This document shows positions 27,480 through 59,478 of a DNA stretch of 64,000 nucleotides, in pieces. Numbering within the stretch: position 1 is the stretch's first letter; each line of letters opens with the position of its first letter. The notes below the pieces were generated by a model that was not told the origin of the DNA, did no database searches, and saw only the letters and a list, made by a program, of their open reading frames with translations. A program made the position numbers and the translations under genes. Source of the stretch: Blasia pusilla (lineage: Eukaryota); the NCBI GenBank assembly GCA_050084515.1, contig CM114271.1, positions 23,684,001 through 23,748,000 on the forward strand, in the 5' to 3' direction.

Positions 27480-27484
27480 CGAAG

Positions 27485-28584
27485 TACATCTCCTACGAGG
27501 GAGAGTGCTTGGCTGCAGTGTGGGCCGTGGCACATTTCAGGTGCTATTTATTCGGCAACCCTTTCACACTTATTAGTGATCATCAGCCGTTGAGGTGGTT
27601 GATGGAGTCCGACAAGCTTACGGGAAAGCTTGCCAGGTGGGCTCTATTACTACAGGAGTATGAGTTTGAGGTGTTTCATAGGCCAGGTCGGTTGAACCAG
27701 GATGCGGATGGGTTGAGTCGTAACCCATGTCCGAGTCAGAGAGACGACACACGAGCTTGATGGCACGGAGAGAGTGATGAGGAGATGGTGGCCGGTTGGC
27801 ATGCATCTGCCTATCTTTGTTGGTTGATTATGGCAAGTCAGCCATAGGTGATGACTCTAGTGGTGGGGTTGGATGATGAGTCTTTCGATCCAAAGTTTAG
27901 TGAGGAGGCAACAGGTGGTTGTGATATCCATGACGACGTGGAGGTTGTGGAGTTCTTGCGCACTGGCGTCATAGCGCGTACAGTGAGTGTTAGGGAGCGA
28001 GATTGGATCCTACAGAGAGCCAGGAGGTTCAAGTGGGAGGGGACTCACATTTTGCGGGTATGGGGAGATGGTAGGATACGAGTGGTACCTCATTCTTCCC
28101 AGCGAGCATATGTAGTGCGACATGCCCATGAGGAGTTGGGACATTTTGGAGTAAAGCGTACTTACAGCTTACTCAAGGTTCAGTATTGGTGGCGCGGCAT
28201 GCATACTGGGGTACAACAGTTTGTGGCCAGATGTATGGTATGGCGGCACCCACAACGCTAGATGTCACTGCATGGCACACAATCCTACGTGTGCACGAGG
28301 TATTATTGACCGGAGTCCTCATGTTGGAGGGACGGGATGGTATGGTTTGGAAGGATTATGTGCGCAATTGTGCACCATGTCATCTTTCGAACGTAGATGG
28401 GACGGTGGATCCGAGCTTGGTAGTGGTACCTGCAAGCTTGAGGTGTATGTTGTACGGATCTGCGAGGGGTGCAGCCACCATGTTGGTATGTGTTGGTTGT
28501 TCTCGAGGGTGGCATATGTCATGTCTGACCCCCCCTCTTGATGTGGTTCCCACGGGATGATGGATGTGTCCGAGATGTGTATAG
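27485..28584 (+). pseudogene. E1 RNase H end, integrase zinc finger and PHD; integrase catalytic core deleted
   Basis: YEGECLAAVWAVAHFR, SDHQPL, ADGLSR, HAHEELGH..CMV, then joined directly to APTTLDV..PHD. Confidence 0.82.
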
Positions 28585-28661: not shown

Positions 28662-29418
28662 TTGTGTGATCTCCATGTATATGTATGAGTTGATTTTTGT
28701 ACATGTGTAGATCGACCCATGTGTGGGGAAGATCGGTGTTCTGTGGTGTAGATGTGACCAACGATGTATGTTGTGTAGCGATATGTATGCGCACGAGAAC
28801 TATCACATCTGAGTAGCCGATAGGCCGAGATCTATCGTGGATAGGGCGTAGGAGCCAACGGACTATCTTGAGTGTAACTTTGTCCCACGGTGTTGGATGA
28901 GGTTGAGGATAGGTCCAATGTGTCAGGAACGTTGTTTCTGCTAACTTTCATGTTGAGGTCTTTTACAACCGGGTGACTTGTTGACCACGTCACCCGCCCC
29001 TGGTAACCTGTGCGTGCAAGTTACCAACGGGAGGGCTATTTTTAGGGGAAGATCCTTTTGGCTCTTCCCAACCCTATTTAAGAGAGGAAGGTGGCTTTCC
29101 TAGGCCATCTTTCTCATGTTAGGCCGTTGGAGCACCTCCCTTGTATGTGTGTGAGATAGGACTAGGGTGCTAGCGTCCGGATTCTTTGATAGCACAGGTT
29201 GGACGAGGCTCGATATGTCGATGTAGATTGAGGAGTGGAGTTTTAGGCCGGGTGTGCCATTTTTACTACTCTTTATTTTTATTGTGTGATCTCCATGTAT
29301 ATGTATGAGTTGATTTTTGTACATATGTGGATCGACCCATGTGTGGGGAAGATCGATGTTGTGTGGTGTAGATGTGACCAGCGATGTATGTTGTGTAGCA
29401 ATATGTATGCGCACGACA
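28662..29418 (+). repeat. E1 3' terminal repeat block A1-B2-A2
   Basis: A (137 bp) at 28662-28798 and 29282-29418 flanks B2 28801-29281, which repeats 4473-4953. Confidence 0.9.
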
Positions 29419-35400: not shown

Positions 35401-35484
35401 CATACGGAGCCCCGATCCGTGCATGAGCTATCAGCGAGCAGGGGTTTGACCAACGCAAGAGCGAACGGTGGTTACTGGGCAGAT

Positions 35485-38400
35485 ATGATAGAGGAAGATG
35501 AAGAGAGCCCTTTGCCCCTTGAAACGAACACTGCGCACGTCACCGACATTCCAGAAAATGTTCGGGACCGTCGTAATCATCCCGCGCTCGAACGGGCTCA
35601 GATTGCACTCAAGGAGCAACTTTTGGCCAGAAAGCAGGACTTGGAAGATAGGATATATGAGCAGGGCACTTTCCTCAAGAGAGCTACCAACAGGAGAGAA
35701 GAGGCCGGCGTGGTCCTGTATGGCATGCAGAAGGCCTTGGCCGGTCTTCACTTAGCCCTCCACAAAGATGCCGAGGAGCTCGCTGCGGCCGCTGAAGCTC
35801 AATCTAAGGTTGACATAGGGCTTAGTGGCTTCGCAATCTTCTGTCTTTGAAAGTTGGGGTGCGAAAATCGATGTCGTTGTCAGGGTTCTATAGAATGCTA
35901 AACCAATGTTTCGATGCTCATCGGTGATCGAACGGAAACAGCCTTTGGACAGTTCACAGTAATGTAGCCAATGTCGAGTTTGTGAGGAGGCACTGGTTCA
36001 GAGCTAGAGAGTTTGTGAAGCTTTTTTGTTTCTGACCAGTAAGCCCTCGACGATTTGTGTGGGACACCCGGGGCAGGCAAAAGAAGAATTGTACCGAACG
36101 ACTCAAACGCACACTGAAAAGTCGAGAGGAATGGTGAAGCTAAGAGACAAACTGGAACAGACCCGCGTCGAATTGGATGATCTCTTGAACAGCTTGAAGC
36201 TGGTAGAGCGCCACAACGAACAGATAAAGAGTGAAATAGCGGTGAACAGACGAGCTACGTATGCTGCCGAGGAGTCCATGTCGGCAGCAGAGAGGACTAA
36301 GAAAGAGCAAGACTTGCGGATCGGGCTAATGCAGAGCCGACTGAAGCATCAGTACGAGAAACAGGCTTTGCTCAGAGCTCAACTTGCAGGTTGGTTTGTC
36401 CGTGTCCTATTCCTTCCAGTTTCCGTATCTTTCATTAGTTCGTCTCGTCTGTTTCGAACCCTGTTCATTCTCCCGTATTAATTCTGCCCAATACTCTCTC
36501 TTGCAGTTTTTGGCCCCAAGCGGTTGGTTTAAAAAAAAGATTGTAACCTGTTCGTGTGCCTTGCGCCTATGCTGGCTCTACACATTCTCCCGGTAGTAGT
36601 AGTCACCACCACGGGATGCGGGTATATCTCGGAAGGTTTGCAGTCATCTGTCAAAGCTCCGCTGAAATTCATCGTTCGCTTGACTCTATCAGTTTTTGTT
36701 GTATCTTCGACGCTCGAACAGGGTGCGGAAATGGAAGTCAAAATAGTTCCTAGGGACCTCTCTTGGCTTTCAGCATTCTATGGACATTCTAATGCGGGGA
36801 ACTGGAACAGTTCAGGAAAGAGAGACAAAGCTTGCGAACGTAGCTCTTTCTGAAGCTGGAACGGAGATGGAGAGCATCACTGCCGAAAAGAAGCAAGTGA
36901 CGATACAGTGGCAGTCTTCACTTCTAGTGCTGTCACGATGTGACGAAGCTCTACAGGTTGCACACCAGATGAGCATCCCAAGATGTCGACGATTTACTCT
37001 GTTAGGTTGTGAATGTCCATCATAATATGCCCTTTAACTCATACATCAGCGAACTTCACGAATTGTACCTGGGATTGGAAAAACGCGCAAGAGGACCAGT
37101 AATCACCAGAATCGATCATCTCGTGGGTTTCTCCCGGCCCTACTTCGAATTACTCACATCTAGAGGCTGTGTGTCCCACATGGCAAGCAAATATTCAATG
37201 ATCAGTCCTCCAGGGCATCGATCGAGTGGTTGAATGCCATGTGGGGTGCTCAGGCTCAAGATGTCTTGTACATGCCGGAGAAGGGAGTTTGAAGTGGAGA
37301 CTGTGTGTCAGGACATCGAGGATTTGCCAGCACTCACCAATGTAGACAGAAAGTTGTGCATAGTGGTCTTTTTCTTGCGTAGTTCGTTTTTGAAAGCTCT
37401 CAAGAGTGTCGTGTACTTCAGCTAATGACCAAAGTTACGAAGCTGAAATGAGAAATGATAAGTTTTGGATGCGGGAGCTTGATTCGTATATAGCCAAGAA
37501 GGGTCATAGCTCGTAGTAAAAGCGTGGTAGCGAGATATAATAACACATGATTACAGGAAGAGAAAGTTCAGATTAGATAGGGGCTGCTTGAATTGAACAG
37601 AACACGGTGCATGAACGGTTAACAGTGCTTCACAGATCAAATGATGTTTTCTGCAAAAGGCATGGTCGAGTTGTGAGTGACTTCCATTCCAAAAGAGGCT
37701 TTCCAGGTCATTCTTTTTGGGATGAAGGGACTTTATCCACTGCTGCCTGTCACGTAGATCCGAGTTGCCTACTCTTCATAAATGTTCGCCCCGTACTGGG
37801 CACGCTAAAGTTCCATGTTTCGTAAAAGCAACAACAGTGTGTTTGAAAGGAGCTACTTTACCACGACTTCCATGTCAGCTGATCTTATAATATAATGTGG
37901 TGCATGACATTGCAAGGGAGGATACAACGGTTACTTCGTGTCGATCGATGCTTAATTTTGAATCATCTTACTGCTCGCGCGCAGGGGTTAATGGATGCTA
38001 TAGCAAATCAGAAGGAACAAGAGAGAGCGGTGGAAGTGGAGAAAGAATCCTACAAGAACGCTATTCGTAAGGAGCAGGAGATCTCCGAGAAGCAGAAAGC
38101 AATTTTGAGGAAAATTGATAGGGAAATGAAGTTAGTACAGAAGCAGATGCAGGCTGCAATTGCCAAGCGCCTTGCACTGGTTGAACAGTACAGGAAACTT
38201 GTGGTAGCTCTTGAGCAGATCGACGCAGCTGTGAAGGCCATTAAAGTGCAAGTAGTGCACCTGGAAACTTTGATAAAGGTGACTAGTCTTCGGATCTCCA
38301 CCTCTCTTCCTCCCTCCCTCCTGCACCCATCCCAGTCCCTAGCTCCGTGCAACAAGAGCTAGTTTCCATGGTAGCAAGGGTACGACAAGCGCTCCTCCAT

Positions 38401-41400
38401 CCCTCGCTGCAAAGCCCATGATCCCTTCGTGGCATTGGGACTGACTCTGGAACGACGGCTGACAGATGATCGATGTTGGGTTTCTTCCTTTGGGTGGCTA
38501 GATACACTCGCAGCTGCTGTCAGTCCCCCAGTTTAGTACCCTGCATGGATGAGGGTGTCAGCAGATTCCGGTGGCCAAACCTTGGCCACCGTCTCGAGCC
38601 AGGTGGTAAATCCTGCATAAGACGAGGATGAACCTCGTCATCTTCCCATCGGCATCTTCGGTTGCTCTCACTCGCAGACCCAGCATTGATTTTGGACCAA
38701 CTCCTTGGAGAGATTTCTTGGGCTACTTCTACCCCGTCTCTTTTCCAGTGAGCACTTATGAGCGCGTAGAGTCGTTGGTCAACATTGGGTCAAACCCATA
38801 GAAGCTTCCCTTCTATGGCCAAGCGAAGCGCCTGCATAAGAATGAGCACGCATTAACCCATTCCTCATTTTGAATCCCTATTCTCCTCGTGTGGCCTCAC
38901 TCGCAGGCCCTACCACCATTGTTTTTAGACCAACTTCTCGGTGGCAACTTTCGAGCGGCCCTTCTCCTCACTTTCACATTGAGGTAGCATAGGCAGGCAC
39001 GTAGACCGCTCGCTCAACAGCATGTCTAACCCCTACAGCTTTCCTTCTATGTTCAAGCGATAAGAATGAGCATTAATTCCTCATTTCCCTGTCGTCCTCG
39101 CCTGACCTCACTCACAGATCGTTCTACACCAACTTCTCCGTCACCTCTCGTGCGGCATTTCCTTCTTTTCAGTGATGTCATACAGCCATGCAGGTAGAAT
39201 CGTAGAGCGATTGCTCAACAGCTTGTCGAACTCGAACAGCTTCCCTTCTGTGCCGTCTATTCTCTACACCCCCCGTGCGGCCACTGCCGCAGGCCCAACT
39301 AAGAGTGTTTCTGTCCTACTTCTTGGTGACGCCTTTCGTGCGGCTTTTCCTACTTTTAATGAGGTCATACGGACATGCACGCAGGCAGCGCGATTGCTCA
39401 ACAGTTTGTCGAACCCCATAGTGCCTTCCCTTCTATGTCCAAGCGATAAGAATGAGCACCGAGCCATCATTTCCCTGTTCTCCTCGTCTGGCGTCATTCG
39501 CAGGCCCTAGCTGGATTGTTTCGGACCGACTTCTTGGTGATACCTCCCTCCCGTGCGGCTTTTCTTCATTTTTATGTTGAGAGGCCATAGAGGTAGGTAG
39601 AGCGATTGCTCAACAGTTCGTCAAATCCATGGAGCCTTCCTTTATATGCTCTAGCGAAAAGCATGCACAAATTGAATATCCCAGGTTGCACCTGATTCGA
39701 TGCGCTAAACTTTCAGCAGCCCAACGTGCGCATCCGGTAGCTTTCGTGAGACCCCTAGCTGATCTCCAAAATGCAAGTCCTTAGTTGTCTGTTGTACCCG
39801 TTTGTAGAATGGTTGAGGTCTACAGTTTGGCGCAACCTAGTAAACCTGAAACTGAGTAAATCTGGGAAGAAGTGGGTGAGGGTATGACTTGAATTTGACG
39901 ATTCACTTTCTCAGGTGCAAGAGAGAGAGATTGTGCGACAAAGTGAAGGTACGCATGAACTTGAGACGAAGATTCTGGAGAACTTGGTAGAGCACATATC
40001 CCTTGAGAAGAAGGGGGCTCAAAATATCTTGCATTCGATCGCGGGACTTCGTCAGCTGGCGAAGAAGGAAGATATGATAGCCACAGAAATCGAGTTTGAT
40101 CTTGCACGAATCCGAGTTGATGTTTTGTCTGTACGTGCCTATAATGAGAACTGCAAACTGGCGATGGAAGCTGTGAATAAGGAGGTCGACGAGAAGCTCC
40201 TCCACATCAGTAAGATACAGGCAGAGATCAGGAAGAGACACGCGGAAGTGGAGATGAAGACTAAGGAGATCGACAGACTCAACAAGACATGTTTCAAACT
40301 GACATCGAATATGCAAATTGGGGACCAGACTCCATGGGACCATATAATGACCAATATCAAGTACGAAATTCAGAAGATCGTAAGATCCTCTAGTGAGAAG
40401 CAGAAACGATGGCTACTGATGCAGACGGCTTTGATCAATCTCGTCACACAGACTAATGACTTATCGGAGAAGTATCAGAAGAAGGATGCCGAGAGACTGG
40501 TGTTCACCAAAAGGAAACAAAGAGTCGATACGCAACGAGATGCGATCAAGAAGTGCATTCAAGATCTCGATAAGAAAGTGCACTCAAAGAGGGGAGTTAT
40601 ATTGAGGTACTCTACTACAACCCAAATCTCCCCCAAACTCTCCTCTCCATGAGGGTGGATTGCCCTCAAACCTTGTTACCTTATATGTGTTCATTCAACA
40701 AGGTTGAGGCGCTTTTGGCACACTTACGAGACCTATATTCATTAGTTTTTGCTAGTACCCACTAATTTTGCACCAGATCTGCTTTCACTTGCCCAATTTT
40801 GAAACCAACTCAACACTATGTTCATGATTCGACTTTCCGTTGTATTAATTTGAATTCTCTCTTGCCGAACTGCTACTAAATGATGGTGCTCAGTTTAGAC
40901 AGATTTTGGCAAAAAAATCAATGACGTCCTCCTAATCTTTGAGACTTGTAAATTTTTTAATGGAGCTGATCCACCACTCGGGACACACTTTTTTGGGATC
41001 GTCGAGGGTTTAGGGAAACACATAAACCTGAACGCTCTCATAGAATGAGAAGGTCGAAATGCTATGCCAAGATGTGTGGATTAAACCGTGTGAGAAAGAA
41101 GAGAAATGTTGCTCGTGATGTTGTAGGCTGAATGACATGGTGGCCAAAAACGCAACTTTGGAGGAGATGTTGCAGAAAGAAAATGCGAACTTACAGAGTA
41201 GCAACTATGCGCACCTCAAGGAATTGGGGCGGGATCTTGTGAGATTGGAGGAGCAGATTGGGCAGTCAACAAATGAAAAGTCTTACGCTCTCAAACATCT
41301 CGATGAGTTGGAGCACCATGCAATGCTTTGGAAGTATAAGATTTCCTTCGAAATTCAAACGCAAGTGAGAAGCCACTCACCATTTTGCCATTCCTGTCAG

Positions 41401-43365
41401 CCTCCTGGCAACGCTTTTGACTGCTATGGCAAACCCGACAAGCCCATCATTCCAACCTGAGTTGAACTGGCACTGTCCTGCACTTGTGGCCCTAATTCTG
41501 GGTAGATGCATACAAATGGCGGTGTGTGGATTTTGACTTTGCTAGAGCAGCGCTACCACAATGTCTATCCACCATCGACCAGAGCCATCACTTCCCTCAG
41601 CGGTTGAGATGAGGCTCTCTATGATCTATCTCGTTGCGAGGACAAAAGTGGATTCCGTTTCCTATCGAAACAACTAATGTGCACCTACATTCCTTGTCCA
41701 GTGTGAGGGTCGTAGTCAGTTTAGGAGGAGTTAGTCGCCTGCTTAACCGCATTCAGCTGCTACAAAACCTGTCCAGGATCAACGAAATCTCACACTAAGC
41801 TGCTGAGGTCCTACACATGTTCTTGGTCTTTGCTGAGGTAAGAGAGCGCGGTGCGTTGTGTGCAGGCACAGATCGATCCACATGTTGGTCGTGCGACAAT
41901 TACAGCACTCAAGAAACGATGTGATCGACTGCGTCTGACAATTGATGGTCTGTCAGTGGTTCGAGAAAAGTTGATCCAAGAACTTGAGAGTCGGGTGGCA
42001 AACCGCAAAACAATTGATACAAAAATAAAGGTTACTGCTGGATACGTGCAACTAGATCGGTCACTGAAAGTTTAGCCATAGTTAAGAGCGGACGAGAGGG
42101 TAGTTATCATTCCGGCTCGCCTCTCATCTGTGATTGCGACAGCTTTTTCTTCTATGCTCGGTTCCCACTGATTAGTCACATCTCACCTTTCCTTGACTAC
42201 TGTTGCCGAAGTGCTCAGTATCCATCTACTCTCGTACCCCTTCCGAAACCTCCGTTCTCCACATCTCCAGTGCTGATCCACCATTTGCACTTCTCTTCTT
42301 CCCAAATTGACCACGGATCAGTTCGATTCGGCACTTGCATCGAGCGTTTCGCTTGGGCTGAATCATGTTATTTTCACTAGATACACGCATCTCGTGTGAG
42401 TACTTGTCCACATGGGACGGCTTCTATCGCGTGATTTGCAAGTATGTTGAACAGATCAGTACGTATGTAAGGTGTTTCTCTGCTTGTTCTTAGTCTACAT
42501 TAACGAAAGGGATTGTCAGATTTTGCTGATCTGCCGGTTAACGTAATCGCAGGCAATGAGCCAAAGGAAAGGGGTGGATGGACCCGCCAGTCTCGAAGCC
42601 AACCTTTTGAAAGGCTGCAAAGAACTTAAGAGAGCCACCACAGAGACAGACAAAACCAGCATCCGCATCGACGGCCAACTCGAAGCGTACGAAGTAAAAA
42701 GAAAGCAATTAGCTTCCGAAGTGGACCGTCTCACCGATGTCATTCAATCAATAGTGAAGGAGCAGGAAGTTTTGAGGTTTTCGTATCATCAAAACTTAAT
42801 GCCATGAGAACGCAGAGTGGGACGTATCTTAATTAACGTGTGCAACTAGATTGGTCACTGAAAGTTTAGCCATAGTTAAGAGCGGACTAGAGGCTAGTTA
42901 TCATTCCAGCTCGTCTCTCATCTGTGATTGCGACAGCATTTTCTTCTATGCTCGGTTCCCACTGATTAGTCACATTACACCTTTGGCACAGGCCAAGATG
43001 AATTGAGCTAAGATCTGACCTTTCGTCACATTACCGAATACGAAAGTTACTATTACACCTTCACGTTTGGGGGCATGTGCAGGAACCAATTGAGAGACAC
43101 AAACTATCACAGATCGTTGCAGCTCATGGCCACAGCCTTGCAACAGCGCTTGTGTAAGAGGTACGAAGAAGTGAGGGCAGACAGGTGGACAGTGAAGTTG
43201 AAGACCACGTTAGAAAATGAACTGACTGAGTCGCAACGAAAGTGCAACGATTTGGTTGGGGTAGTGAGGTTGATGATGGAACGACTTCCAGAGGTGGTAC
43301 CGAAATTAGATATGATGGAAGCACAGTTGTCATTTGTTATCAAAAAATCAACTTTCACGTACTAA
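35485..43365 (+). CDS. CCDC40: Coiled-coil domain-containing protein 40 (axonemal ruler component, FAP172-like), multi-exon
   Basis: GT-AG exons 35485-35808, 36077-36389, 36811-36956, 37985-38278, 39915-40606, 41127-41364, 41866-42030, 42553-42776 and 43083-43365 join in frame. Motifs HPALERAQIAL, REEAGVVLYGMQ, IAVNRRATYAAEE and KKEQDL match my recollection of CCDC40. The start may lie in an upstream exon (AG just before the ATG). Confidence 0.78.
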
Positions 43366-43809
43366 ATAAGACTCCGATAAAAGAAGTGTCCCAGACGTGG
43401 AGTTCACTTGACAAAAACTACTACTGTGGATGGTTTCCAAAGAGGAGCCTATCTCACATTTATGAAGGGAGTGTAGGATTACGTGAGAGGTACGAAGAGT
43501 GAGGGCAGACAGATGGACAGTGAAGTTGAAAACCACGTTAGAAAATAAACTGACAGAGTCGCAACGAAAGTTCAGCGATTTAGTTGTAGTGATGTTGATG
43601 ATGGCACGACTTCCAGAGGTGGTCCCGAAATTAGATATGATGGAAGCACAGTTGTCCTTTGTTAGAAAAAAATCAACTTTCACGTACTAAATAAGACTCC
43701 ACTAAAAGAAGTGAGACCCAGACGTGGAGATCACTTGACAAAAACTACTGCTGTGGATGGTTTTCATAGAGGAGCCTATCTTACATTTATGAAGGGAGTG
43801 TAGGATTAC
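43154..43809 (+). repeat. Tandem duplication (about 328 bp x2) of the CCDC40 last-exon 3' part plus 3' UTR
   Basis: 43154-43482 is repeated at 43483-43809; ORF 43499-43690 repeats RADRWTVKLK..STFTY. Confidence 0.9.
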
Positions 43810-46459: not shown

Positions 46460-47522
46460 CTAGTAAGGTGAATAAAAAAGGGTTTGAATATTTTTTGTTA
46501 GTGTATAGTCTATGAAAGTGTTAAATTTTTTTCTTATTGTTTATAGTATGTGAAACATTTTCTTGTTATCCAATTGTGAATGTTTTTTTGGGCCAATTAT
46601 CATGTGCCAAACAGAATGGTGTTTACAAATAAAAAAGCACTCTTCAAAAAAAATCTAGATTTTAAAATAAACTAGTAAGGTGTCCGTGCGATGCCCAGAA
46701 AATAAAAAAGTGTTTGAAGAGTTAGTGTATACTCCGTGAAGGGAAGAGATAAATGATGCTGAACATAAATTCAAAATTTTTTTCTTGCTGCCCGTAGTAT
46801 GTGAAACATTTTATCGTTGCCCAGTTGTCACGTGTCAAGGAGAGAGGTGTTTGCAAATCAAGAAGGCACTCTCCCATAATAATATAGATAAGGTGCACAT
46901 GCCATGCAAGGGAAATAAAAAGTGTTTGAAGAGCTAGTGTATAGCTCGTGGAAAGAAAAAAAAATTACACATAAATTCAAAATTTTTTCTTGCTGCCCAT
47001 AACATGTGAAACATTTTCTTGTTGCCTAGTTGCCACGTGTCAAGCAGAGAGGTGTTTGCAAATCAAGAAGGTACTCTCCCATAATAATATATAAATAAGA
47101 TGCTCGTGCGATGCACGGGAAATAAAAAAGTGTTTGAAGAGCTAGTGTATAGCCCGTGAAGGGAAAAGATTAATAATATTGCACATAAATCTAAAAAATG
47201 TTTCTTGCTGCCCAAAACATGTGTAACATTTCTTGTTGCCCAGTTGTCATGTGTCAAGCAGAGAGGCGTTTGCAAATCAAGAAGGCACTCTCCCATAATA
47301 ATATAGAAAAGGTGCTTGTGTGATGCACGGGAAAAAGAAGAAGTTTGAAGAGCTAGTATATAGCCCGTGAAGGGAAAAGATTAATGATATTGCACATAAA
47401 TTCAAATTTTTTTTCTTGTTGCCCATTACATGTGAAACATTTTCTTGCTGCCCAATTGCCACGTGTCAAGTAGAGAGGTGTTCGCAAATCAAGAAGGCAC
47501 TCTCCCATAATAATATAGATAA
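46460..47522. repeat. Tandem repeat, about 210-bp unit, 4 well-conserved copies plus 1 diverged
   Basis: Recurring aaataaaaaagtgtttgaagagctagtgtata, tgtgaaacattttcttgttgcc and gcaaatcaagaaggcactctcccataataatata at about 210-bp spacing. Confidence 0.85.
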
Positions 47523-50500
47523 AAATCATATAATTACGAGAATACCAGATGTGGCCTTTAATGAGGATAGAAGCCCAGTATAGCTAGTCAAGTGTGAGCC
47601 TTAGGCCATAGCAAGTTTTATGGCAAAAGTTGTTCTACGAGTTGTTTTAGGGCAAAGGTTGACCTATTCTATAAGCTCTTCCATCCCATATGGTCATTGT
47701 AAATATGGGCCCCAAAAGTAGTGGGTATATGAATGGATGGTTGTCCTTGAGCCCTCCACATAACATCAAAGCTTCCATTTTCAACAAAAAGATGTTGGTT
47801 TGGTAGCAATTGACATTTTCGTGTTGCTATCAACCCTTTGCCTCGCATCGTAGCGGCTTTCGATGGGTTCCATCATATAAGGCCCTTGGGGGGATTGTAA
47901 ACCCAAGCTGATCTTGTGCCCAGGGGTCCGAGGAAATTTCTTTTTCATGAGAATTGGTACATTTCTGGACAATACAAAAGAGAACGGTAAATTTTAGAAA
48001 TTTCTTGATTCCAAGCGGCTATTTGGATACAAATACAAAGGAGAGTTCGAGTATTATGTCTGTTTTTGGCCGGTGATTGAAAAATTGATTCGGCAATTTT
48101 AAAATTCTTCCGGCTAGCTCAACATGTAATCCCGATTCTCCCCGTAAATTTCTCATGCCCATCTTTTTGCATCTTATAGTAAGTTATGATCATGAAATAC
48201 TTGCTTATGCAAAAATGATTAATTTTGTGCTCATGCCATGTGCCGCACGAATAGAACCCTCTCAAGCTTACAAAAATTGATAAATCTATGTTATAATTGG
48301 GGCCCTCACATGCACGATAAGAAAAATAGTAAAAAGTTTGCAATTTTGTCCCTTATGCACAGTTGATATTTTGAGAAGGGAAAAAATTTGAATGGAAGAA
48401 GGAAATGCTTTCACTAATTAAGATTAACTAATGATTTGATTAGTAGGCGTTATGTTGGTGGGAGAAGTGAGTGGAGGGGGAGGAGTAGATATTGTTCAAA
48501 CTTTTATGGAAGGATAGAATTATTGAGGGGAGTGGGGTATTATTTAAATTTTGATTCAAGAGTGGATTTATTTAAAAGAGTGGAATGTTATTAATCCTTT
48601 AATATTTAAGGAAATAGAAATTATGCTTGAAGGATGGGGACATGCGAAGGGTGTTTCACGGGTGCATTGACGGGACGTGGGGACAAGTTGGCAGGGGTGC
48701 ACAAAGTGGTCGGGACTTGGCAAGTTGGCAGAGGACGCGAGATGCGTGAAAAATGCTTAGACAAGTGTACAAACACCAACTTTGTTTGGATGAAACCTTG
48801 AACACGTATGGCGTTGTTGGAGAGTTTTAAATTCCCTAACCCTTGGTCTAATGCCCAATGCACACAAAAAATTCTTATTAAAAATTTCCCGATTTTGAAA
48901 ATAAGAATAAATAAGAGGAGAAAATCTTTGGCCCAAAAAGAATCTAAATTTATTTTAAAATAAAATTGATATGGCATCCATAGTTTACATTCAACGGTTA
49001 GTAAAATGGAAAAATACTTATATTCCAAAAAACTACAACATAATTTACTAAATTTTCATTTAGCATATGTTTAAGAACGCTACAAATAAAACTTCATCTT
49101 AAGAAAGTTTGAAAGACACTTTGCATGAATTAATTTTGAGAATCGCATTCAAAAAATCTTGTATTTTAAGTTTAACGTGTTTAGGGTTAGGATTATTCTA
49201 ACCAATTTTAAATTCCAAAGTACATGGTTAATTTTGGATTTTGGAAATAAACACATGGTGTCCATAGAAAATTTTCAATTAAATTTTCTTAACTCTTTAA
49301 TAATAATCATAAAAATAAAGATAATATTTTAATTTCCCAAAAATTCAAGAAAAATTATCATATTCAAAAATTATAATTCTATAATATTAAAAAATATAAA
49401 TAAGAAAATAAGAAAATGGTAAAGTTTTAATAAAAAAATTGGACTAATTTTAGGATTCTTGAAGACAAAACTAACAAGGACTAGGAGGGAGATTTTATCA
49501 AAATCTTGAATTTCAGAATTTAGGAAAAAATAAAAACTTCTACAATTTTTTGGGAATGGCTCTATTAGCATTTTGAAGGCACACATAAGGAATTTTATTG
49601 CATGCGTGAGCTCTTAAGGAAGCACTAGTCTAATGGCTCCGACTAATTCACCAAATGGGGGGGAGGATGGCCCCCCCACACACACATATTGTCATGACCA
49701 TACGGATTATGTCGTAGAGTATAGTGTGCTAGTAGAGGACATTCCTTATGTAGGACCGTAGTGGCTTGGTAGAGATGCGGTTCCATACATAGGGTTGGGG
49801 TTACTCGGTTGGGGTGAGTTTCCCAGAGGGGCCCACTCTTAGGTTGGAGGATATAAGGTGGAGTGCACTCAAAGAAACGTCGAGTTCTTTGAGTTGAGCC
49901 TGCTATGCGTTGGGAGTTAGCCTTGGTAGTGAGTAGAGCTCTTGGTTATGGTGTTTCCAAGCTTCGACCTGGATTCTCCCCATCGTGGAGTGGGTTTGGC
50001 TCGATTGTATGTGATTATAAACGTGTTTTATGACATGAGGTCTTTCACGGATTTCACTCAAAGAACTGGAGTAGATCGATGGTAGCCGATTGTAGATCAA
50101 TGGGGATCTGGTTAGGGCTGATTGTGTACTCAGCCGTGGATGTTCGTGGCTTGTGGCCTATGTTGGAGGTGTGAATCTGGTGCGCGGTTGGTTGGGAAAG
50201 AAGCGCCTTTTGAGAGCTTTCCAACGCGCTGTAGATCGCGGATTTCGTCAAGAGAGTTGGAAGTTATCAAGCATTGAAGATTCGGTCGTGTTCGGCCGCT
50301 TTTTCGATGTGGAGAGCTTGGAGTGCGGAAGGCTGTGTTGAAGTTCATCCAGATCGGGTGAGAGGTTCTGTTGCTACTGTATTGTGATCTCCGTGAATCT
50401 ATATCGCTTTCGAGTGTGTGGAGCGTTGCGGATTTCTGCGTGCATGAAACTTGGCGGAAGCGCTGTCGGATTTGCGATTCTGGACAACAAGTTTGTTTGA

Positions 50501-51523
50501 TTTTTAGCTCAGAGTACAGAGCTCGGTTGTAGCTGATTTTTTGTGGAGGGATAGCTATGGTGGTCAATAGATATACGTGACCGAAACAGATTTGATTTCG
50601 GTCACGTATTTGTGAAGTAATTTCTGATCGAAATTTCGCGGACTAGCTCGAGGTCTGGCTATGGTGGAGAGCGGATCGGAGGGGCTAGTTGGTTGGTGAC
50701 TCGTTCATTTTTGGAGACGCCTATCCCATTGGGGGCGCCCTGGTTGGACCTTTCTCCATAGCAAAGCATGGCGAAGCGTGGCGAACGGGGCATGTCTCGA
50801 GCATTTCTCGGCGTTTTGAGGCTTCGAGGCAACTCGTGGTAGCTCGGGACGAGTGGGCGTGAGAGGCGGAGTAAGGAGCAAGGAGCAAGCAAGCAAGCTT
50901 GCTTGCTTGGGCGTGAGGCAATTTTTGCAGGATTTGGGATTTGAGTTTTGCATAATCTGGTCACCATCTTTGGGCTATTTCGCTGGAGGACGCTTAAGCG
51001 CCGAGTTCTTAACTATGCCAATGTGTCTGCATGTTGTAGCTCATTTGGTCTTTGTTCGGAGATGTGTTAGGCGCTTTATGCATCTCAGGTTTTTGGTTGA
51101 TGTACCTCTAGCGCATAGTACGGTGTAGCCTCTCCATGCAGGTGATATTTTCAGGTCTTTGGCGTTACTAGCACGTCATCGACCCTTGGCGGAGTAGCTA
51201 TTGCGTTAGAATTGTGTGGTGGGTTTTGTGGATTCAGAGGGCACCACGTTTGGTGGATTGTGTTACCTTGATTTCCATTTGCGATTGGAGGGTTGTCGTT
51301 GGATTTCTGTGTTTGGATCCCCTCCATCGTGCTTTTGCTTGGCGCCCATTGTTAGGGTTGACGCTGATTTCGAGTAGTGTTACTCCTATGTGCTACCGGT
51401 AGTGAGGTGGAGGGATGACGAGTAGATTGTGGGAGACTTCTTGTGGTGATGACAAGTTAGGTTGCCTACACCCATAGCTAGTAGAGCTAGAATAGTATAG
51501 CGACATCGGCGTCACTTGGTAAT

Positions 51524-54500
51524 TTGGTGGTGGTGCGGCATCGGCGTTGGTCATCACGGAGTGTCGGGTGGTCTGCGGTTGGGGACCGTGGTGCGGATAG
51601 TGGTGGTTTCACACGGAGTGGATTTAGGTATCGGCTACCTTTTCCACTTCCGACGGTTGATGAAGAGGAGGACGAGGGTGTTCCAAACACCGAGTCTTCT
51701 ACGTTGTTATCGAGTGTTGCGGCTCCATTGATTTGGGACATGGACGGTGGATATGGGGTCATGAAGGGCCCACGGACGATACTCGGGTGCAAAGTGGGTA
51801 CCATTGAGTTGGAGGACTTCATGCGGGAGTTTGATACGTGGTGTGATATGTAGATGTTGCGAACGCCACGTTGTTTACACCCTTCTTGGCTTGGAAGGGT
51901 TGTTTCAAAGACTTGGAAGGACCACCCATGGATGATTACCATGAGTTTAGGAAGGACCATGTTTTTGAGATTGAGGCATGGAGACAATATTGGTCTCAGG
52001 CTATGTGTCTATCACCCATGGTGGTATTGGTAGTAGTGCTCCTACTATGCCGGCCGGCCCGGCGAGTGAGGTGCAGGCGAGCGAGGTGGGGTACGAGTGG
52101 AGGAGTGGGGGTACGGTGGAGGTACTAGTGGGGGTACTAGTGGAGGTACTAGTGCCCCACCATCGTTTAGCCGAGTTGCAGAGTTCTTCAAGAGGTTGAA
52201 GAAGAACTATCAAGGAGTGAAGACGGAGAAGTTGAGGAATCTTCAGGACTTTGAGCGAAAAGGCGGTGAGAGTCTTCGTGAGGCATACACACAGCGTATC
52301 GGACGCTTGATTTCATTACCAGGGTGTGGCGAGGATCAGCGATCCGATTTTGGTATGGGATCTTGGGCAGAGATTTGCGCCGTAGGGTAGGGTGCGTGAT
52401 GCTACTCTTATGAGTGATGATTCACCCACATTGACCCATGTGTTTGCTCTATCCGAGAAGATTGAGCTTAACATGGTGAAGGAGAGAGTGGTGACATCCG
52501 CATTCAGTAGGGGATACAACTACTACTTCTCGTGTTCAGCCGCCCACCTCACGATCTCGTAGTAGTGGTGGTGGTAGTAGTAGTGGGAGTCGTGGGGGTA
52601 CACGCGACCTCGATCAAGTCCTAGAGGGACATTTGTGCAGAGACCATTGCCTTCATTTGCTGCCCCTTGTGAAGGACAATCATGTTGGACATGTGGAGGT
52701 GATCATGTTAGGAAGTTTTGTCCCCAAGAGGATGGGAGACGGACTTTGGAGGATGGGCCTCGATCGGCCCCAACTCGGTGTGATCATTGCGGGAGACTAG
52801 GTCATCCTCGAGAGCGTTGCTTTGATCTTCATCCGAGTTGAGATCAGGCCGTGGCCGTGGTGGAGTAGCTCCGAGAGGCCGAGGTGGTAGAGGTGGTAGG
52901 GGTGGTAGAGGTGGACCCGGTGGTTGGAGAGCCTACGGTGGCTACCCCTACCACTACGACAATCACTATGGCTGCCAGATTGAGCTTGATTGGAGTAGAA
53001 GTTGGCTACTATGGGCTGGTATCCAACATAGATCAGGTTCGGGAGCAAGGGCTTCCACCTCTTATGGAGGGGATGATCTCTCTTATATGGCGAGTGCAAA
53101 GGCCTGAGGTTGAGGCATCAGTGCGATTATGAGAGGAGCCACTCGGCGTAGAGCCACGTGGTGCTCTTGTGAGTTGGACCCAGAGGGGTGAGGCGGGAGG
53201 CGAGGCTAGGCTTCCCAGTCATTCTTGTTGTCGAGGTGCTTAGGACTCCATCCATGGTTCCTATCAGCCTATTGAGCCGACATGGGGGACCGAGGCATCT
53301 ACAAGCGTGTAGTAGACACGGATGCAAAGCATCAATGCAAGATTGCGGATGGCAACCGGTGTTGGGATCCCCATTGTTTTCGCCACGGAGCGATGGCTTT
53401 AGGAGTTGACTTAGCTCTGTATTTCAGTTAGCGACCACGTTGTGTGAACGTGGGGATATTCTTGCTACGCGTGTTGAGGTGGATGAGGGTGTTGCGGTGG
53501 AGCGACCCTCTATGTCGAGTAGTATTGAGTACGGTGCTACTTGGCGGCGGCGGCGAAGATGGATGCATTACCCGGCCCGCGCCACCATTGATCGTGAGAG
53601 GCTTACACTGGTGTATGTATGTTGGACAACCGGAGTGGGATCTTCCGATTGGTGAGTCCCTACAGGGCAGGTGTATAGACCAGATAGAGTCTTGTTAGAC
53701 TCGGTGCCCAACCTTGATGTTGGGAAAGGCGGCATGTATTGGTTTGGGTATTCGGAGGTCGAGCTTGAGCCTTGCCCATTCCAGATTCAAACATCACTTG
53801 GAGGAGCCAATGATAGGTCTCAATTCATGACACGGGAGAAGTTTTTCTGTCTGTTGAGACCAGATCATGCGACCGATAGCTCCCGGTTGGGAGTATCTGC
53901 GGTAGTCACATCGGCCGAGTCGTATGATGTACTAGTTGGAGGAGCGATATTGTACCCGATGGGTTTTCAGATGGATTCTTTGGGTCGAGACAAAGATCTT
54001 ATAGACCAGGTTGGATCCGGGATGGACGTATGAGCCAAGTTCTGTGAGATTTATTTGTGGGGCTCGACCAGGAGGGTCTTCCCCAACAAAGATGTTAGCA
54101 TCGTGGGCTGGTTTTAGTGGAGTAGTCACTTGGCCAGGAGACTTTTGGAGGGTAATGTTTACGCTATGGATTCTCCTGCGCATGAGGAGGAAGAGGAGGT
54201 CCCTATTTTTGCAGCAAGTGGCATCCTCATCGTTGGATGTGCAACTTTGGAGTTCAGCGGTGCACTACGGCGGGAGGCGTCGCCTAGTGAGAGGCTTGGT
54301 GTGAGGTGTTATACCTCACGAGGAAGAGGAGGCCCCACGGCGGACTCCTACTTCTGGCTTGATTAGGTTATCCCTTTGGATACTACACCCATTGTATGGC
54401 GTATCCGCCGGAGGGCATTTGTGTGTTAGATCTCTTTGGTGGGATTAGCACTTTGGTTTGGCTGCGATGTTGCAGGCGGTATTCTGTCTTGGAGATACGT

Positions 54501-55613
54501 GTATGTGGAGCGAGATGAGACGGCCCGAGAGAGTCTCATCCCGACATATTGGTCGATTGATGCAGAGGTATCTGAGTTGTTGCCGCCATCGGCTATTCGT
54601 GGGTACCGGCGTGCTTTACCATCACACATTGCATCGTTGGGCGCAGGACCTTGAGAGAATTGGTCCTGTGGATTTGGTGATTCTTTGGATGGCCATGTCG
54701 TGGTCATACACACGTCTTTGGTCGGGTGAGGGATTACATGACCCTAGGTCTCGATTGTTTTGGGAGATGTTACGGGTGTTACGACATCTTCAGGTTCATC
54801 AGGCACGTGCTCTAGCTTACATTCTGGAGAATGTTCCATTGTTGGGTGACACTCGGACCCGGATGATGGCGAGTGTTCATGAGGTGCGCTCTTGGATTGG
54901 ACCAGCGGTGTTGTTGGATGCAGCGCGAGTTGGCTCGCGTGCACATCGTCCACGCTTGTGGTGGACAAACTTGTTGCCTAGGGAGGTTCTACGTCGAGCA
55001 TATGATGCAGTGTAGCGGGATCCTCGCCTTACAGTGGATAGTATCTTGGATACTGGGCAACTTTCCCAAGTGGTGAGGGTTATTGATCGGTCACCCATGG
55101 CAGTGGTGAACCGTGTGGGCCAACCTAGGATGGCACTACCCACATTTGTGAGTTTTCCTCGTCACAAGCCTACCAGGGAAGGTGGTCCGGGGCTTGTATG
55201 GGATTCTCATGTGCGACAGTTGGTGGAGCCTAACGCTGATGAGAGAGAGCGTGCGATGGGATTTGCATTGGTGTGACAAAGCGGTTGCTTCTATTTACGA
55301 GGCTTCACGACGTCATGTGTTGGGTCAGGCCATGGACCTGAATTGTTTGACTTGGATTTTGAGTCTTGGTATGGCCGAGCAGCGTCGACTTCGGACTATG
55401 TCTGTGGGTCTTCCACCCCTTGTAATGAGCTCGATGGCTACCGGGATGGTAGAGGCATCGGCTGGGGGCGAGGAGAGTAGTATTTTGCATCCTTGGAGTA
55501 AATGGGATGTAATGGCTGGGCATGTGGAGTTGGTTGCTCATGCTGGTGGAGGAGTTATTTGCTCAGATGATGGTGTAGCTAAGGGTGTATCATCTTGTGA
55601 GGGGGTTGCGTAG
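51524..55613 (+). pseudogene. E3 Gag-protease-DNMT ORF (frameshifted in this assembly)
   Basis: Gag and two CCHC-type knuckles; PR VLLD; DNMT about 54415-55365 with GWPC at 54687-54698, YILENVP, AHRPRLWWTN, ERERAMGF, LGQAMDL; ends at TAG 55611-55613. Confidence 0.85.
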
Positions 55614-58600
55614 CAGCCAATGGCATCGTCCTCTCCCTCTAGTATGCCAGTGGAGGAGACTTGGGAGCCATTACTTGGGCCCAAGCTTACGGGAGGTGAG
55701 AAACGATGCTTGACACAGTTCCTACGTGCTTATAGGAGTTGTTTTGCCTTTAGCATGAAGGAGTTGGGTTCTCTGGTTGGACCCAGTATACGGATTGATT
55801 TGGCTAGTGATACGCCAATCTTCCGTCGTCCCTATCGATATAGTGATATGGAAAGGGACTTGATTCAGAGTAGGACGTTGGACCTTTTGGAGGCTGGATT
55901 AGTGGAGTTGTCGTATGGAGAGTATGCATCAGCCACTATCATGCCTGCTAAAAAGGATATGCATGGCAACTACACGGATAGGCGGATGTGTGGAGATTAC
56001 CGTCCTATCAATCGGCAAACCAAGGCCGATAGGTATGCCATGCCTACACCTGAGGAGATCTTTGATGTGGTGGGACAGCAAATATTTTCAGTACTTTGGA
56101 TCTTGGCGGGCAGATACCATCAATTGCCGATTCGGGAGAGTGACAAGGCCAAGAAAGATTTTGGGGTGTCAACTCTCATGGCAAGGATTGTTTGTACCAG
56201 TGGAAATTCTTACCCTTTGGGTTGAAGAATGCACCTGCCGAGTTTCAAAGAGTGATGGACAGGATCCTAGCAGGGTTGGATTTTGTTTGGTGTTACATTT
56301 TTGATATCTTGGTGTTCAGTAACACGGTGGAGGAGCATCAGATACATTTGCAGATGGTGTTTGAGCGGTTGAAAGCTCATTGTCTACGTTTGCATCCAGG
56401 AAAGTGTAAGTTCTTCCATGAGGATGTTGAGTACTTGGGTCATGTGATCTATCCAGGTGGTTTGGGAGTTCAGCAAGCAAAGGTGGAGGCTATTGCACTT
56501 ATTCCGCGTCCGATAGATGTGAGTAGAGTTCGAGCATTCATGGGATTGGCAAACTACTATCGGAGGTATGTGAAGGGATTTAGTGCTATGGCAAAGCCTT
56601 TGAACCAATTGCTGAAATCAGATCAAGAGTGGCATTGGGGAGATGATCAGGAGAGAGCTTTTGTGGAGCTTAAGGCCCAGTTGGTGGCGGCGCCTATCTT
56701 GAGGAGACCTATCAGAGGGCGCCCATTTCAGATTACACTCGATTGGAGTAGTTTGGGACTTGGAGCGGTGTTGACACAACATGATGATGAGCACATGGAG
56801 TTTGTGGTGGCCTATGCAAGTCGTTTGAATAATGCAATGGAGTCGCGCTATAGCTCATATGAGGGAGAGTGCTTGGCAAGAGTGTGGGTGTGGCACACTT
56901 TAGGTGTTACTTGTTTGGCACACAGTTTACCCTTGTTACTGATCACCAGCCGCTCAAGTGGTTGATGGAGTCGGACAAGCTTACAGGGAAGCTTGCACGG
57001 TGGGCTCTTATCTTACGGGAGTATGACTTCCAGGTGGTACATAGACCTGGAGTTGCCAACCTTGATCTTTGATGGGTTGAGTAGGAATCCATGTACTAGC
57101 CAAGAGGATACAATCGGGGCTAGATGGCATGGCGAGGTTGATGAGGAGATGGTGCCAGGTTGGCATGCATCCGCCTTTTTATGTTGGTTAGGGGTGGACT
57201 CTAGTATGGAGGACCACATAATATCTTACTCTAGTCGAGGGTAGATGGCCGGCCTTGAGATCCTAAGGTTGGAGATGGTGGTACGGATCAGCGTGATATT
57301 CATGATGATGCGTTGGTGTTGGAGTTCCTACTGACCAAGAGGGTGCCAGGCATAGTGAGTGCCAAGGAGCGAGACCGTGTTCTTCAACGTGCTAAGAGGT
57401 ATCGATTGAGGGAACACATATTCTCGCGTGTGGGAGGATGGTAGAGTACGAGTAGTGCCACATTTGGCTCAGAGAGAGCGCATTGTGCGACATGCCCATG
57501 AGGAGTTGGGACATTTTGGGGTAAAGCGTACGTATAGCTTACTCCTTGGCCAATATTGGTGGCGTGGCATGCATACTCAGTGCAGCTGATTGGTGTCACG
57601 TTGTATGGTTTGTGACCGGGTGAGGGCATCATTTAATGCCCCTACACCACAATTACACCCCTTGCCTATTATGGGGTTGGGTTACCGTTGGAGTGTGGAC
57701 TTTGCGGGACCGTTACCGTTGGTATGCGACATCATCGATATGTGTTGGTGATGGTGGAGCACTTCTCCAAGTGGATTGAGTTGGTGGCATTACCGGACAA
57801 GGCAAGTGAGGAACGGCGTATGCGTTTGGATAGAGTGCTTAGTCATTTTGGTGCACCGGTGAAGTCTTGACCGACCAGTCTGAGTTTCAGTGGTGAGTTT
57901 CAGGTCTTGTGTGACAAGGCGTTGATTGATCATCGGACCACGTCTCGAGATCATCCAGAGGCGGATGGTTTGGCTGAGCGTGTGGTTCAGACGGTGAAGA
58001 GGGCATTGCGCAAGTATGGCCTACAAAAGGGGCATCTTGGAGATTGGGATATTCAGTTGCCATGGTTAGCCATGGGGTATAGGTTCAGTCGCCAAGCATC
58101 CTTGGCTTCCTTCTCACCTTATTTTCTGTTATACGGCCGAGATCCAGACTTGCCAGCAGCAATTCGTCGGGAGTCTAGTGAGGTGGTGAACCTTGATGAC
58201 CCAGAGATGTGGATGAGGGTGTGTTCTCAGCGGGCGGAGCTCTTTCGGAGAGTTATGCCAACAACCTTTGAGAATCTTGCCATTGCTCAACATAGGGATA
58301 CGTTGCGGTATGCAACCATTCGGGGTGGAGGTTATCGACCATCGATTCGTAGGTTCCATGTGGGGGACTATGTCTATTTGCAGCAGATTGCACCGACAAC
58401 GTTGGATGTGATGGCAGGCCGCACTATTTTACGAGTGCGTGAGGTGTTAGCTTCTGGAGTTCTCATGTTGGAGGGTCGTGATGGAGTTGTTTGGAAGGAC
58501 CATGTGCGTAATTGTGCGCCATGTCATCTTCCAAATGTGGATGGTACTGTTGACCCAAGCTTAGCCATGATACGTGCTAGCTTGAGGTGCATGTTGTGTG

Positions 58601-58728
58601 GGTCTGCTGGTAACGCAGCCCGTATGTTGGTGTGTGATCGGTGTTCTAGGGGTTGGCACATGATGTGTTTGACTCCACGTTTGGATGTTGTTCCTATTGG
58701 AAGGTGGGTTTGTCCTCGATGTACTTAG
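55614..58728 (+). pseudogene. E3 RT-RNaseH-integrase-PHD
   Basis: RMCGDYRPIN, PFGLKNAPAEFQ, YIFD (YIDD in E2), RNase H, HHCC finger, WSVDFAGP, ADGLAERVVQTVK, PHD 58588-58722, stop 58726-58728. Confidence 0.88.
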
Positions 58729-58899
58729 GAGAGGTAGATGACTTGATCTTTGCATGATATGGATTACAGATGTGCGACTAACGATGGGGCAACCTAGCAC
58801 CCGGCCTTCTGATTCGAGCACCCAAGAAGGTGTATAGCATGTAGTAGATGTATAGGGCTACCTGGGAGTTAGAGGACCTAACCGCCGATTAGGGGGCGA

Positions 58900-59478
58900 G
58901 TTGTGGTACACTTGCGTTTGTGGATACTCTCGTCTATGTTATGTACGTATGTGAGTATGGTATGTCAACGATGTATGTTGTATGACGATGTGGATTCGCA
59001 CGACAGCTGTCATGACCATACGGATTATGTCGTAGAGTATAGTGTGCTAGTAGAGGACATTCCTTATGTAGGACCGTAGTGGCTTGGTAGAGATGCGGTT
59101 CCATACATAGGGTTGGGGTTACTAGTTGGGGTGAGTTTCCCAGTAGGGCCCGCTCTTAGGTTGGAGGATATAAGGTGGAGTGCACTCAAAGAACAGTCAG
59201 TTCTTTGAGTTGAGCCTGTTGCGTTGGGAGTTAGCCTTGGTAGTGAGTAGAGCTCTTGGCTATGGTGTTTCCCGCAAGCTTCGACCTGGATTCTCCCATC
59301 GTGGAGTGGGTTTGGCTCGATTGTATGTGATTATAAACGTGTTTTATGACAGTAGGTCTTTCACGGATTTCAGTTGTGGTACACTTGCGTTTGTGGATAC
59401 TCTCGTCTATGTTATGTACGTATGCGAGTATGGTATGTCAGCGATGTATGTTGTATGACGATGTGGATTCGCACGACA
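58900..59478 (+). repeat. E3 3' terminal repeat block A1-B2-A2
   Basis: A (106 bp) at 58900-59005 and 59373-59478; B2 59008-59372 repeats 49690-50056. Confidence 0.93.

Follow-up and report, generated by a model that had tools for sequence, protein, structure and literature searches.

Introduction

DNA methylation is the main weapon of the host against transposons, and a transposon that carries its own de novo methyltransferase is therefore a paradox. Work on methyltransferases borne by transposable elements (TEs) has so far covered just two groups of algae, and for the streptophyte one it gave no clear activity result. That case is KnitGypsy-Dnmt3 of Klebsormidium nitens, a Gypsy-type element whose coding region includes a DNMT3-type domain that retains its key residues and has a Ka/Ks below 0.2 (de Mendoza et al., 2018, PMC5890265); according to the legend of Fig. 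4c of that paper, its repeats are arranged as in DIRS elements and its domains are Gypsy-like. In Symbiodinium, SymbioDIRS-Dnmt3 methylated CG de novo in yeast (PMC5890265). Later papers of the same group refer to “streptophytes (Gypsy-DNMT3)”, with land plants unnamed in the text (PMC12344493; bioRxiv 10.64898/2026.05.21.726589). Here we analyse a 64,000-nucleotide stretch of Blasia pusilla contig CM114271.1 (assembly GCA_050084515.1; hereafter the window), which holds three Gypsy-type elements, E1, E2 and E3, each with a DNMT3-type cytosine-C5 methyltransferase domain (DNMT) between its protease and its reverse transcriptase (RT).

We hold the identity of this domain and the architecture of the element around it with high confidence. 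Taken together with the working that we propose below, the window probably represents three copies, all of them dead and belonging to two families, of a green-lineage Ty3/Gypsy-type lineage with a captured DNMT3-type methyltransferase. The closest described system is KnitGypsy-Dnmt3. The present elements show three further features, which it may or may not share: an in-frame UAG-CARYYA boundary between the DNMT and the RT, a PHD finger, and integrase-type ends on a split-repeat element. These yield testable ideas on dosage, packaging and targeting. Bryophyte-type genomes also bring the question into a tractable land-plant model, since the Marchantia polymorpha annotation lists, as hypothetical proteins, apparently intact open reading frames (ORFs) spanning Gag, protease and DNMT. 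Such TE copies inflate the number of “DNMT3” genes counted in genomes of algae and bryophytes, and annotators should treat these counts with caution.

A DNMT3-type domain in unpermuted order

An earlier note on this DNA, made from the sequence alone, had placed C5-methyltransferase motifs in unpermuted order at 54415-55365 (in E3) and at the counterpart positions of E1 and E2, and alignment, Pfam and matches to Protein Data Bank (PDB) chains now bear this out. Motifs I, II, IV, VI, VIII, IX and X follow one another in this order, with the catalytic cysteine present, in all three copies, where they are interrupted by stops or frame breaks. We aligned each copy in a frame-aware manner to the Marchantia relative P0124, counting amino-acid identities. 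The E1 domain (9164-10129; all elements and coding features lie on the forward strand unless stated) has no frame breaks, two stops and 65.5% identity to this guide; the E2 domain (16675-17641) has 10 frame breaks, one stop and 72% identity; and the E3 domain (54385-55352) has 10 frame breaks, one stop (55013) and 76% identity. E1 can be read in a single frame over 9167-10123, with in-frame stops TAG at 9272 and TGA at 9560, and gives the series DLFGGISTG, YLYVERDE, AGWPC, ILENVP, AHRPRLWWTN, ERERTMGF and LGQAIDLNC. For E2 and E3 the proposal holds in that every motif is there (motif VIII of E2 as AHHPRLWWTN), but not as a continuous reading, the motifs being scattered over three frames with 10 breaks in each copy.

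The Pfam model DNA_methylase (PF00145), which the earlier note had suggested as a check, matches E1 above its cut-off (33.5 against 22 bits, E=4.1e-8), the match being limited to residues 78-158 around motifs IV-VI. The longest single ORF piece of E3 (54449-55015) gave no Pfam match by itself, because of the frame breaks. Across 40 aligned relatives the catalytic cysteine is invariant, the glutamine that follows the catalytic Pro-Cys (PCQ) is nearly so, and the ENV glutamate, the arginines of the motif VIII R-x-R and the motif I glycine are kept in at least 90%. Motifs IX and X are likewise conserved in these relatives.

The domain resembles DNMT3 rather than the circularly permuted plant DRM enzymes, as had been proposed. 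When E1 was compared with the PDB by phmmer, DNMT3A, DNMT3B and DNMT3C led, at 2.1e-11 (DNMT3A) to 2.5e-7, with DRM2 at 4.4e-3. DRM being circularly permuted, its motifs I-V alone align (query 11-132 to chain 228-343, C-terminal in DRM2). A profile built from the 40 relatives sharpens the separation, with DNMT3A at 1.5e-26, DNMT3C at 2.7e-24 and DNMT3B at 1.2e-23, and weaker matches to tobacco DRM (4.5e-16), DRM2 (1e-12), M.HhaI (2e-9) and DNMT2 (2.6e-5). The DRM permutation, in which motifs VI-X stand ahead of I-V, is not seen in the window copies, which keep the order given above. An AlphaFold model of the E1 domain built on the 40-relative alignment (mean pLDDT 93.7, pTM 0.91) retrieved DNMT3A/B/C from the PDB by Foldseek in all matches listed (through rank 47), the best being 6f57_D, a DNMT3A chain (E=9.4e-19, TM 0.72/0.81, 22% identity). 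A part of the natural Marchantia protein, compared with the ESM Atlas, matched generic DNA-methylase clusters only.

The domain shares with DNMT3A/B/C the fold, the motif order and a small target-recognition region, but at about 20-23% identity and with PCQ in the family where DNMT3A has PCN. Canonical DNMT3 enzymes differ further from the present family in their chromatin readers: Pfam found no PWWP or ADD domain in the relatives P0124 and P0138 or in the window pieces, and a PHD finger is instead present at a distance, on the integrase; the domain is also intronless and lies within a TE. With plant DRM2 it has in common a distant DNMT3-related catalytic core, whereas DRM is permuted and scores much more weakly.

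Element architecture and split terminal repeats

E3 is a full-length element of 9.8 kb (49690-59478) flanked by a 4-bp target duplication (ATAT). Its gag with two CCHC knuckles (51740-52841; 7 frame breaks within the first 215 guide residues) is followed by a protease region (53331-54235; 10 frame breaks), which is of DSG type in relatives and is recognised by Pfam as Asp_protease_2 on the relative P0138. After the DNMT come RT and RNase H (55662-57050; Pfam RVT_1, RT_RNaseH and RT_RNaseH_2), then the integrase (57422-58587), where an H2C2 zinc domain (57467-57628; Integrase_H2C2, 1.2e-15) precedes the core in a tblastn alignment to P0142, and a PHD finger at the integrase C-terminus (58588-58722; Pfam PF00628, E=2.3e-10). 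The rve core is found in relatives, and the integrase-core stretch of E3 aligns at 47-50%. The RT is unbroken over 55662-56848 although gag, protease and DNMT hold 7-10 breaks each. Pfam and tblastn together thus give the order Gag (CCHC), protease, DNMT, RT, RNase H, integrase and PHD finger, in agreement with the earlier proposal of a methyltransferase embedded in a Gypsy element between protease and RT.

E2 (12015-21736; target duplication TACC) belongs to the same family, with 92% identity to E3 over 9.9 kb in a self-comparison of the window. It is inserted in the RT of E1, and its excision restores an E1 reading in which WRFLP is joined directly to FGLKNA. E1 (4473-29418; target duplication TAGT) represents a second family and is further interrupted by a minus-strand Copia element (22375-27480) and a 1-kb insert (10121-11124), the latter sitting directly after motif X and cutting off the DNMT domain. 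E1 is without an integrase core and keeps the PHD finger (28471-28578; PF00628, E=9.8e-9). The 3' part of a fourth related element, cut by the start of the window (34-1143), includes an integrase C-terminus and a PHD finger (675-809; Pfam, 3.7e-11).

The ends of these elements are not a plain pair of long terminal repeats (LTRs), an arrangement seen in none of the three; each has instead split direct repeats in the arrangement A ... B-A-B. In E3 the 5' terminal repeat A1 (49690-50056), which begins TGTCATG, differs from A2 by 2.8% substitutions and 6 indel events, and the 3' block (58899-59478) consists of B1 (58899-59005), A2 (59008-59372) and B2 (59372-59478), ending in ...CACGACA. The corresponding units are A1 12015-12365, B1 21155-21251, A2 21266-21630 and B2 21630-21736 in E2, and A1 4475-4953, B1 28662-28796, A2 28803-29281 and B2 29282-29416 in E1. 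Identity between B1 and B2 is 98% in E3 (107 nt), 95.6% in E1 (135 nt) and 95% in E2, and the B1-A2 junction resembles the two ends of the element joined, with 2-4 extra letters between them. All three elements have TG..CA ends and 4-bp target duplications. Between the families the terminal repeats are unrelated, blastn of 4475-4953 against 49690-50056 giving no high-scoring pair at E<1e-20, which agrees with the earlier description of two families with very different LTRs. Among metagenome loci of at least 9 kb, the full B-A-B signature was also found, at the thresholds used, in 2 of 33 (L077 and L078); six further metagenome loci have the far repeat pair and no detectable B pair.

The order of protease (PR), RT, RNase H (RH) and integrase (INT), the DDE-type integrase, the TG..CA ends and the short target duplications are those of Ty3/Gypsy elements, but the two identical LTRs usual for that class are replaced by A ... 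B-A-B in the three window elements, L077 and L078. A split-repeat layout is typical of DIRS and Ngaro elements. The tyrosine recombinase and the absence of target duplications that mark DIRS elements are likewise not what the window elements show, since they have 4-bp duplications and an Integrase_H2C2 domain. Insertion of the integrase type is shown by this zinc domain, the duplications and the TG..CA ends, and the elements combine it with a DIRS/Ngaro-like repeat layout. Chromoviruses are Gypsy elements with a chromodomain on the integrase; like them, the present elements have a chromatin-reader module at the integrase C-terminus, here a PHD finger (PF00628) and not a chromodomain. The PHD finger on the integrase is also present in chlorophyte-type relatives.

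An in-frame UAG between the methyltransferase and the polymerase

The coding region had been described as a polyprotein. A single coding region from gag to integrase does not stand: there are really two ORFs, split by a leaky-looking UAG, with the DNMT on the Gag-protease side. In E3, an in-frame TAG CAGCCA (55611-55619) separates Gag-PR-DNMT from RT-RH-INT-PHD, and the same DNMT/RT boundary is marked in frame by TAG CAGCCA in E2 (17900-17908) and TAG CAACCA in E1 (11407-11415). Two distant metagenome relatives have TAG CAGTTA (L051) and TAG CAATCA (L054) at the same site, so that UAG-CARYYA occurs at the same place in the three window elements, L051 and L054. It is because the place is conserved that we give the motif weight. 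In plant viruses, UAG-CARYYA is the type I read-through signal of tobamoviruses (PMC5382211). The element boundary and the tobamovirus signal are alike in having an in-frame UAG-CARYYA just upstream of the polymerase part.

At 34 of 62 metagenome RT starts, a TAG or TAA stands at a constant 34-42 codons upstream, and CAA or CAG plus two pyrimidines come directly after it; at the other 28, a nearer stop hides the boundary site, which was not scored. Across the 80 metagenome loci (L001-L080), TAA stands in place of TAG at the boundary in 9.

The clearest view of the layout comes from L051, which is intact: an ORF1 of 1369 aa (CCHC, DSGA, WPC, ENV, HRPRWIWTN) is followed by TAG and an ORF2 of 1047 aa that takes in YIDD and extends as far as the PHD finger. 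In Marchantia, the models P0124 and P0127 open with the gag methionine and finish shortly past the DNMT; the DNMT therefore belongs to the upstream Gag-PR ORF. With the UAG between DNMT and RT, protease and DNMT both come to lie on the Gag side of the stop, in which these elements differ from viral read-through systems. Murine leukaemia virus makes Gag-Pol by read-through, and avian retroviruses have the protease within the gag ORF.

Relatives and distribution

The earlier note had seen a possible extension of such elements to land plants, and relatives at 55-75% identity in liverworts and Sphagnum support it: they come from Marchantia polymorpha, M. paleacea, Riccia sorocarpa, Calypogeia fissa and three Sphagnum species. 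A longer search returned 27 proteins, 17 of them from Marchantia polymorpha and the rest including Calypogeia fissa, Sphagnum troendelagicum, S. fallax and Closterium. A word-index protein search gave 148 proteins at E<=1e-3, among them M. paleacea, Riccia sorocarpa and S. tenellum, and an exhaustive search of 1.84 billion representatives gave 2767 matches at E<=1e-3, 703 at 1e-10 and 207 at 1e-30. Klebsormidium members were found in none of the word-index searches, the exhaustive representative search or the cluster look-ups.

Two domain orders occur among the relatives. Type 1, PR-DNMT-RT(-RH-INT), is that of the window, bryophytes and Closterium, and a “pol” protein of Scenedesmus sp. PABB004 is among those of type 2, RT-RH-DNMT-INT-PHD. 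In a midpoint-rooted FastTree phylogeny of 186 domains, all TE-borne, one split (SH-like support 0.973) parts all 38 type-1 tips from all 83 type-2 tips, the other 65 tips having no flanking domain by which to type their order. Since the tree is unrooted apart from its midpoint, it does not distinguish one capture from two. E1 and E2/E3 fall in a clade of named liverwort and moss sequences, with a low clade support of 0.24.

Set beside KnitGypsy-Dnmt3 as its text and figure legend describe it, the window elements are alike in their unpermuted DNMT3-type domain, Gypsy domains and purifying selection, and the DIRS-like layout of the legend fits the A ... B-A-B ends of all three. The hosts differ, being bryophytes and Closterium here, and the UAG boundary, the PR-DNMT-RT order and the PHD finger may or may not be features of KnitGypsy-Dnmt3 as well. 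We infer a likely common descent, a link that rests on shared architecture because no Klebsormidium sequence was found. With SymbioDIRS-Dnmt3 and SymbioLINE-Dnmt the window elements share a retroelement-borne C5 methyltransferase under purifying selection; the former has a tyrosine recombinase and the latter is a LINE, and these other classes represent independent captures according to their authors (PMC5890265), whereas the present elements have the zinc domain of a DDE-type integrase and target duplications. In the literature searched we found no description of DNMT3-carrying Gypsy elements in land plants or bryophytes, although supplementary lists, which lay outside the search, may hold some.

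Selective constraint and decay

The earlier note had suggested purifying selection on the methyltransferase, and the ratio of nonsynonymous to synonymous substitution rates (dN/dS, NG86 method) supports it. Between families the DNMT gives 0.171 (E1-E2) and 0.164 (E1-E3), similar to the RT overall (0.08-0.20), with values for E1 against E2/E3 of 0.155-0.195 in the N-terminal part of the RT and 0.084-0.105 in its C-terminal part and RNase H; the protease gives 0.18 (E1-E3). Within the family, the DNMT of E2 and E3 gives 0.61, which is the expectation for two decaying copies of one family. Metagenome relatives whose DNMT match is free of stops (L051, L052 and L054) give DNMT ratios of 0.128 for L051-L052, at a dS of 0.26, and 0.118 for L051-L054, the ORF2 ratio of the latter pair being 0.059. 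As judged from these sequence comparisons, constraint on the DNMT domain at the level of the family is supported.

The window copies themselves are relics that cannot act as read. Between E2 and E3 we counted 519 substitutions and 193 indel events, most of the latter (171) being of 1-2 nt. The E1 repeat pairs have 0 indels in 614 nt, and E1 gag-PR-DNMT forms one single-frame tblastn segment to P0124 over about 3.1 kb; for these two reasons, part of the E2/E3 indel load may come from errors in assembling a family of very high copy number, uneven decay being the other possibility. A share of assembly error is supported by contigs of other sequencing runs that align to 53300-57300 (104,716 of run X1 and 1,717 of run X9), the DNA runs of the best-matching organism being very rich in this family. 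At the seven E3 frame breaks that were checked (near 53607, 53760, 54041, 54142, 54400, 54527 and 54685), X9 contigs show a one-letter difference, with most or all of the X9 depth at six sites and about a third at 53760, and at the E3 stop 55013 all depth in X9, X11 and X13 differs from the window. It follows that the lesions are confined to the E3 copy or to the assembly. None of the listed runs with the family is recorded as RNA; X11 and X13 are guessed to be so, and the coverage of 53997-55296 by their contigs (roughly 95%) does not show transcription.

Most of the 80 metagenome loci have the DNMT in one frame with 1-10 in-frame stops, and the pattern of these stops, including TAA for TAG at the boundary, suggests transition-driven decay.

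A proposed working of the element, and alternatives

We propose that most ribosomes would stop at the UAG, so that Gag-PR-DNMT would be made in excess over a read-through product adding RT, RNase H and integrase; the DNMT, being in such excess and joined to Gag, would enter the particle together with Gag. With S-adenosylmethionine as its methyl donor, it would methylate the new double-stranded cDNA there or in the pre-integration complex, so that each new copy would be methylated on arrival. At the other end of the coding region, the PHD finger of the integrase might read the state of the histone H3 tail and bias integration of the cDNA, as chromodomains do in chromoviruses. Self-methylation of the cDNA strikes us as plausible if somewhat short of probable. 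A wider version is more tentative still. It is conceivable that the elements belong to an ancient green-lineage Gypsy lineage equipped with a complete epigenetic kit, in which a writer of DNMT3 type is made at the level of Gag ahead of a leaky UAG, the integrase has a PHD reader and the split repeats are DIRS-like; that its two domain orders agree with the DNMT tree, chlorophytes having RT-RH-DNMT-INT, and bryophytes and Closterium PR-DNMT-RT; and that this lineage may still be active in liverworts including Marchantia polymorpha, pre-methylating its own cDNA and contributing to TE methylation in the host.

Several observations weigh against the proposed reading. All three DNMT copies in the window are broken, and the PCQ glutamine is replaced by histidine in E1 (9476-9478) and by arginine in E2 (~16992) and E3 (~54699). 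A stop-free full-length DNMT match is present in only 5 of the 80 metagenome loci. The between-family ratios are calculated at a saturated dS of 1.7-1.9 for E1 against E2/E3, and a frame-aware alignment favours amino-acid matches and may lower dN somewhat. Read-through is predicted from the context of the UAG alone; the motif by itself is not rare, with 6 occurrences in the window against 3.5 expected, and 29 of the 34 metagenome sites read CAACCC and not strict CARYYA. The tree holds no canonical DNMT3, DRM or Klebsormidium outgroups. Finally, no methylation was obtained in yeast with the Klebsormidium homologue, an outcome that the authors call inconclusive (PMC5890265).

The alternative that fares best is that the family is a fossil in this genome, in which the DNMT once served the element and there is now neither an active copy nor a present effect on the host. 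The breakage of every window copy, a terminal-repeat divergence of 2.8-4.8% (4.8% in E1) that points to old insertions, and the 1-10 in-frame stops in the domain of most metagenome relatives all speak for it. Set against these are the run contigs, which come from a very high-copy family and lack the breaks of E3 at seven places as well as its stop; the intact two-ORF relative L051 and the full-length ORF1 models of Marchantia; and the excess of E2/E3 indels (193 against 519 substitutions) that may partly be assembly error, given none in the 614 nt of E1 repeats. We regard a fossil family as possible but on balance unlikely.

Somewhat less likely again is a DNMT kept for another role, whether by acting in trans on host DNA or on the DNA of rival TEs, by methylating RNA, or by damping the element to spare the host. 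Its location in ORF1 lets the enzyme be made without RT or integrase, and all these options were raised by the authors of the Klebsormidium and Symbiodinium work, in the text of their paper (PMC5890265). Against this reading, the fold and the small target-recognition region match DNMT3A/B/C, and the profile scores DNMT2-type tRNA enzymes at 2.6e-5 against 1.5e-26 for DNMT3A. Between action in cis and in trans, nothing in the sequence decides.

That the DNMT is a catalytically dead structural module, a pseudo-enzyme retained for binding DNA or S-adenosylmethionine, might be read from the altered PCQ of the window copies, but the invariance of the catalytic cysteine in 40 relatives and the retention of the ENV glutamate, motif VIII arginines and motif I glycine in at least 90% make it improbable. 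An artefact, with a host DNMT3 fragment or pseudogene beside a TE by chance or through mis-assembly, has nothing beyond the unusual E2/E3 indel load in its favour and is rejected with near certainty, because the domain recurs at the same position and in the same frame relation to protease and RT in the three window copies, in named proteins from several genera and in dozens of loci from metagenomes, and because the elements are bounded by target duplications.

Other features of the window

The minus-strand element nested in E1 (22375-27480) is of the Ty1/Copia type, with a CCHC gag, a DTGA protease, an integrase and a YVDD RT. The divergence between its LTRs (8.2%) exceeds that between the E1 repeats (4.8%), though the Copia element must postdate E1. 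The 1-kb insert of E1 (10121-11124) is one of two occurrences of a repeat that lies in inverted orientation at 2864-3868, with 73% identity between the two. Rfam gave no match at gathering scores over the whole 64-kb window. A series of exon-like ORFs (35146-43365) belongs to a long coiled-coil host protein, with sub-threshold Pfam matches only (CENP-N, HAUS-augmin3). Direct repeats, tandem or dispersed, occupy 46471-47522 and 43154-43809 in units of ~200-430 nt at 73-86% identity, and include a 330-nt tandem pair at 91.5%.

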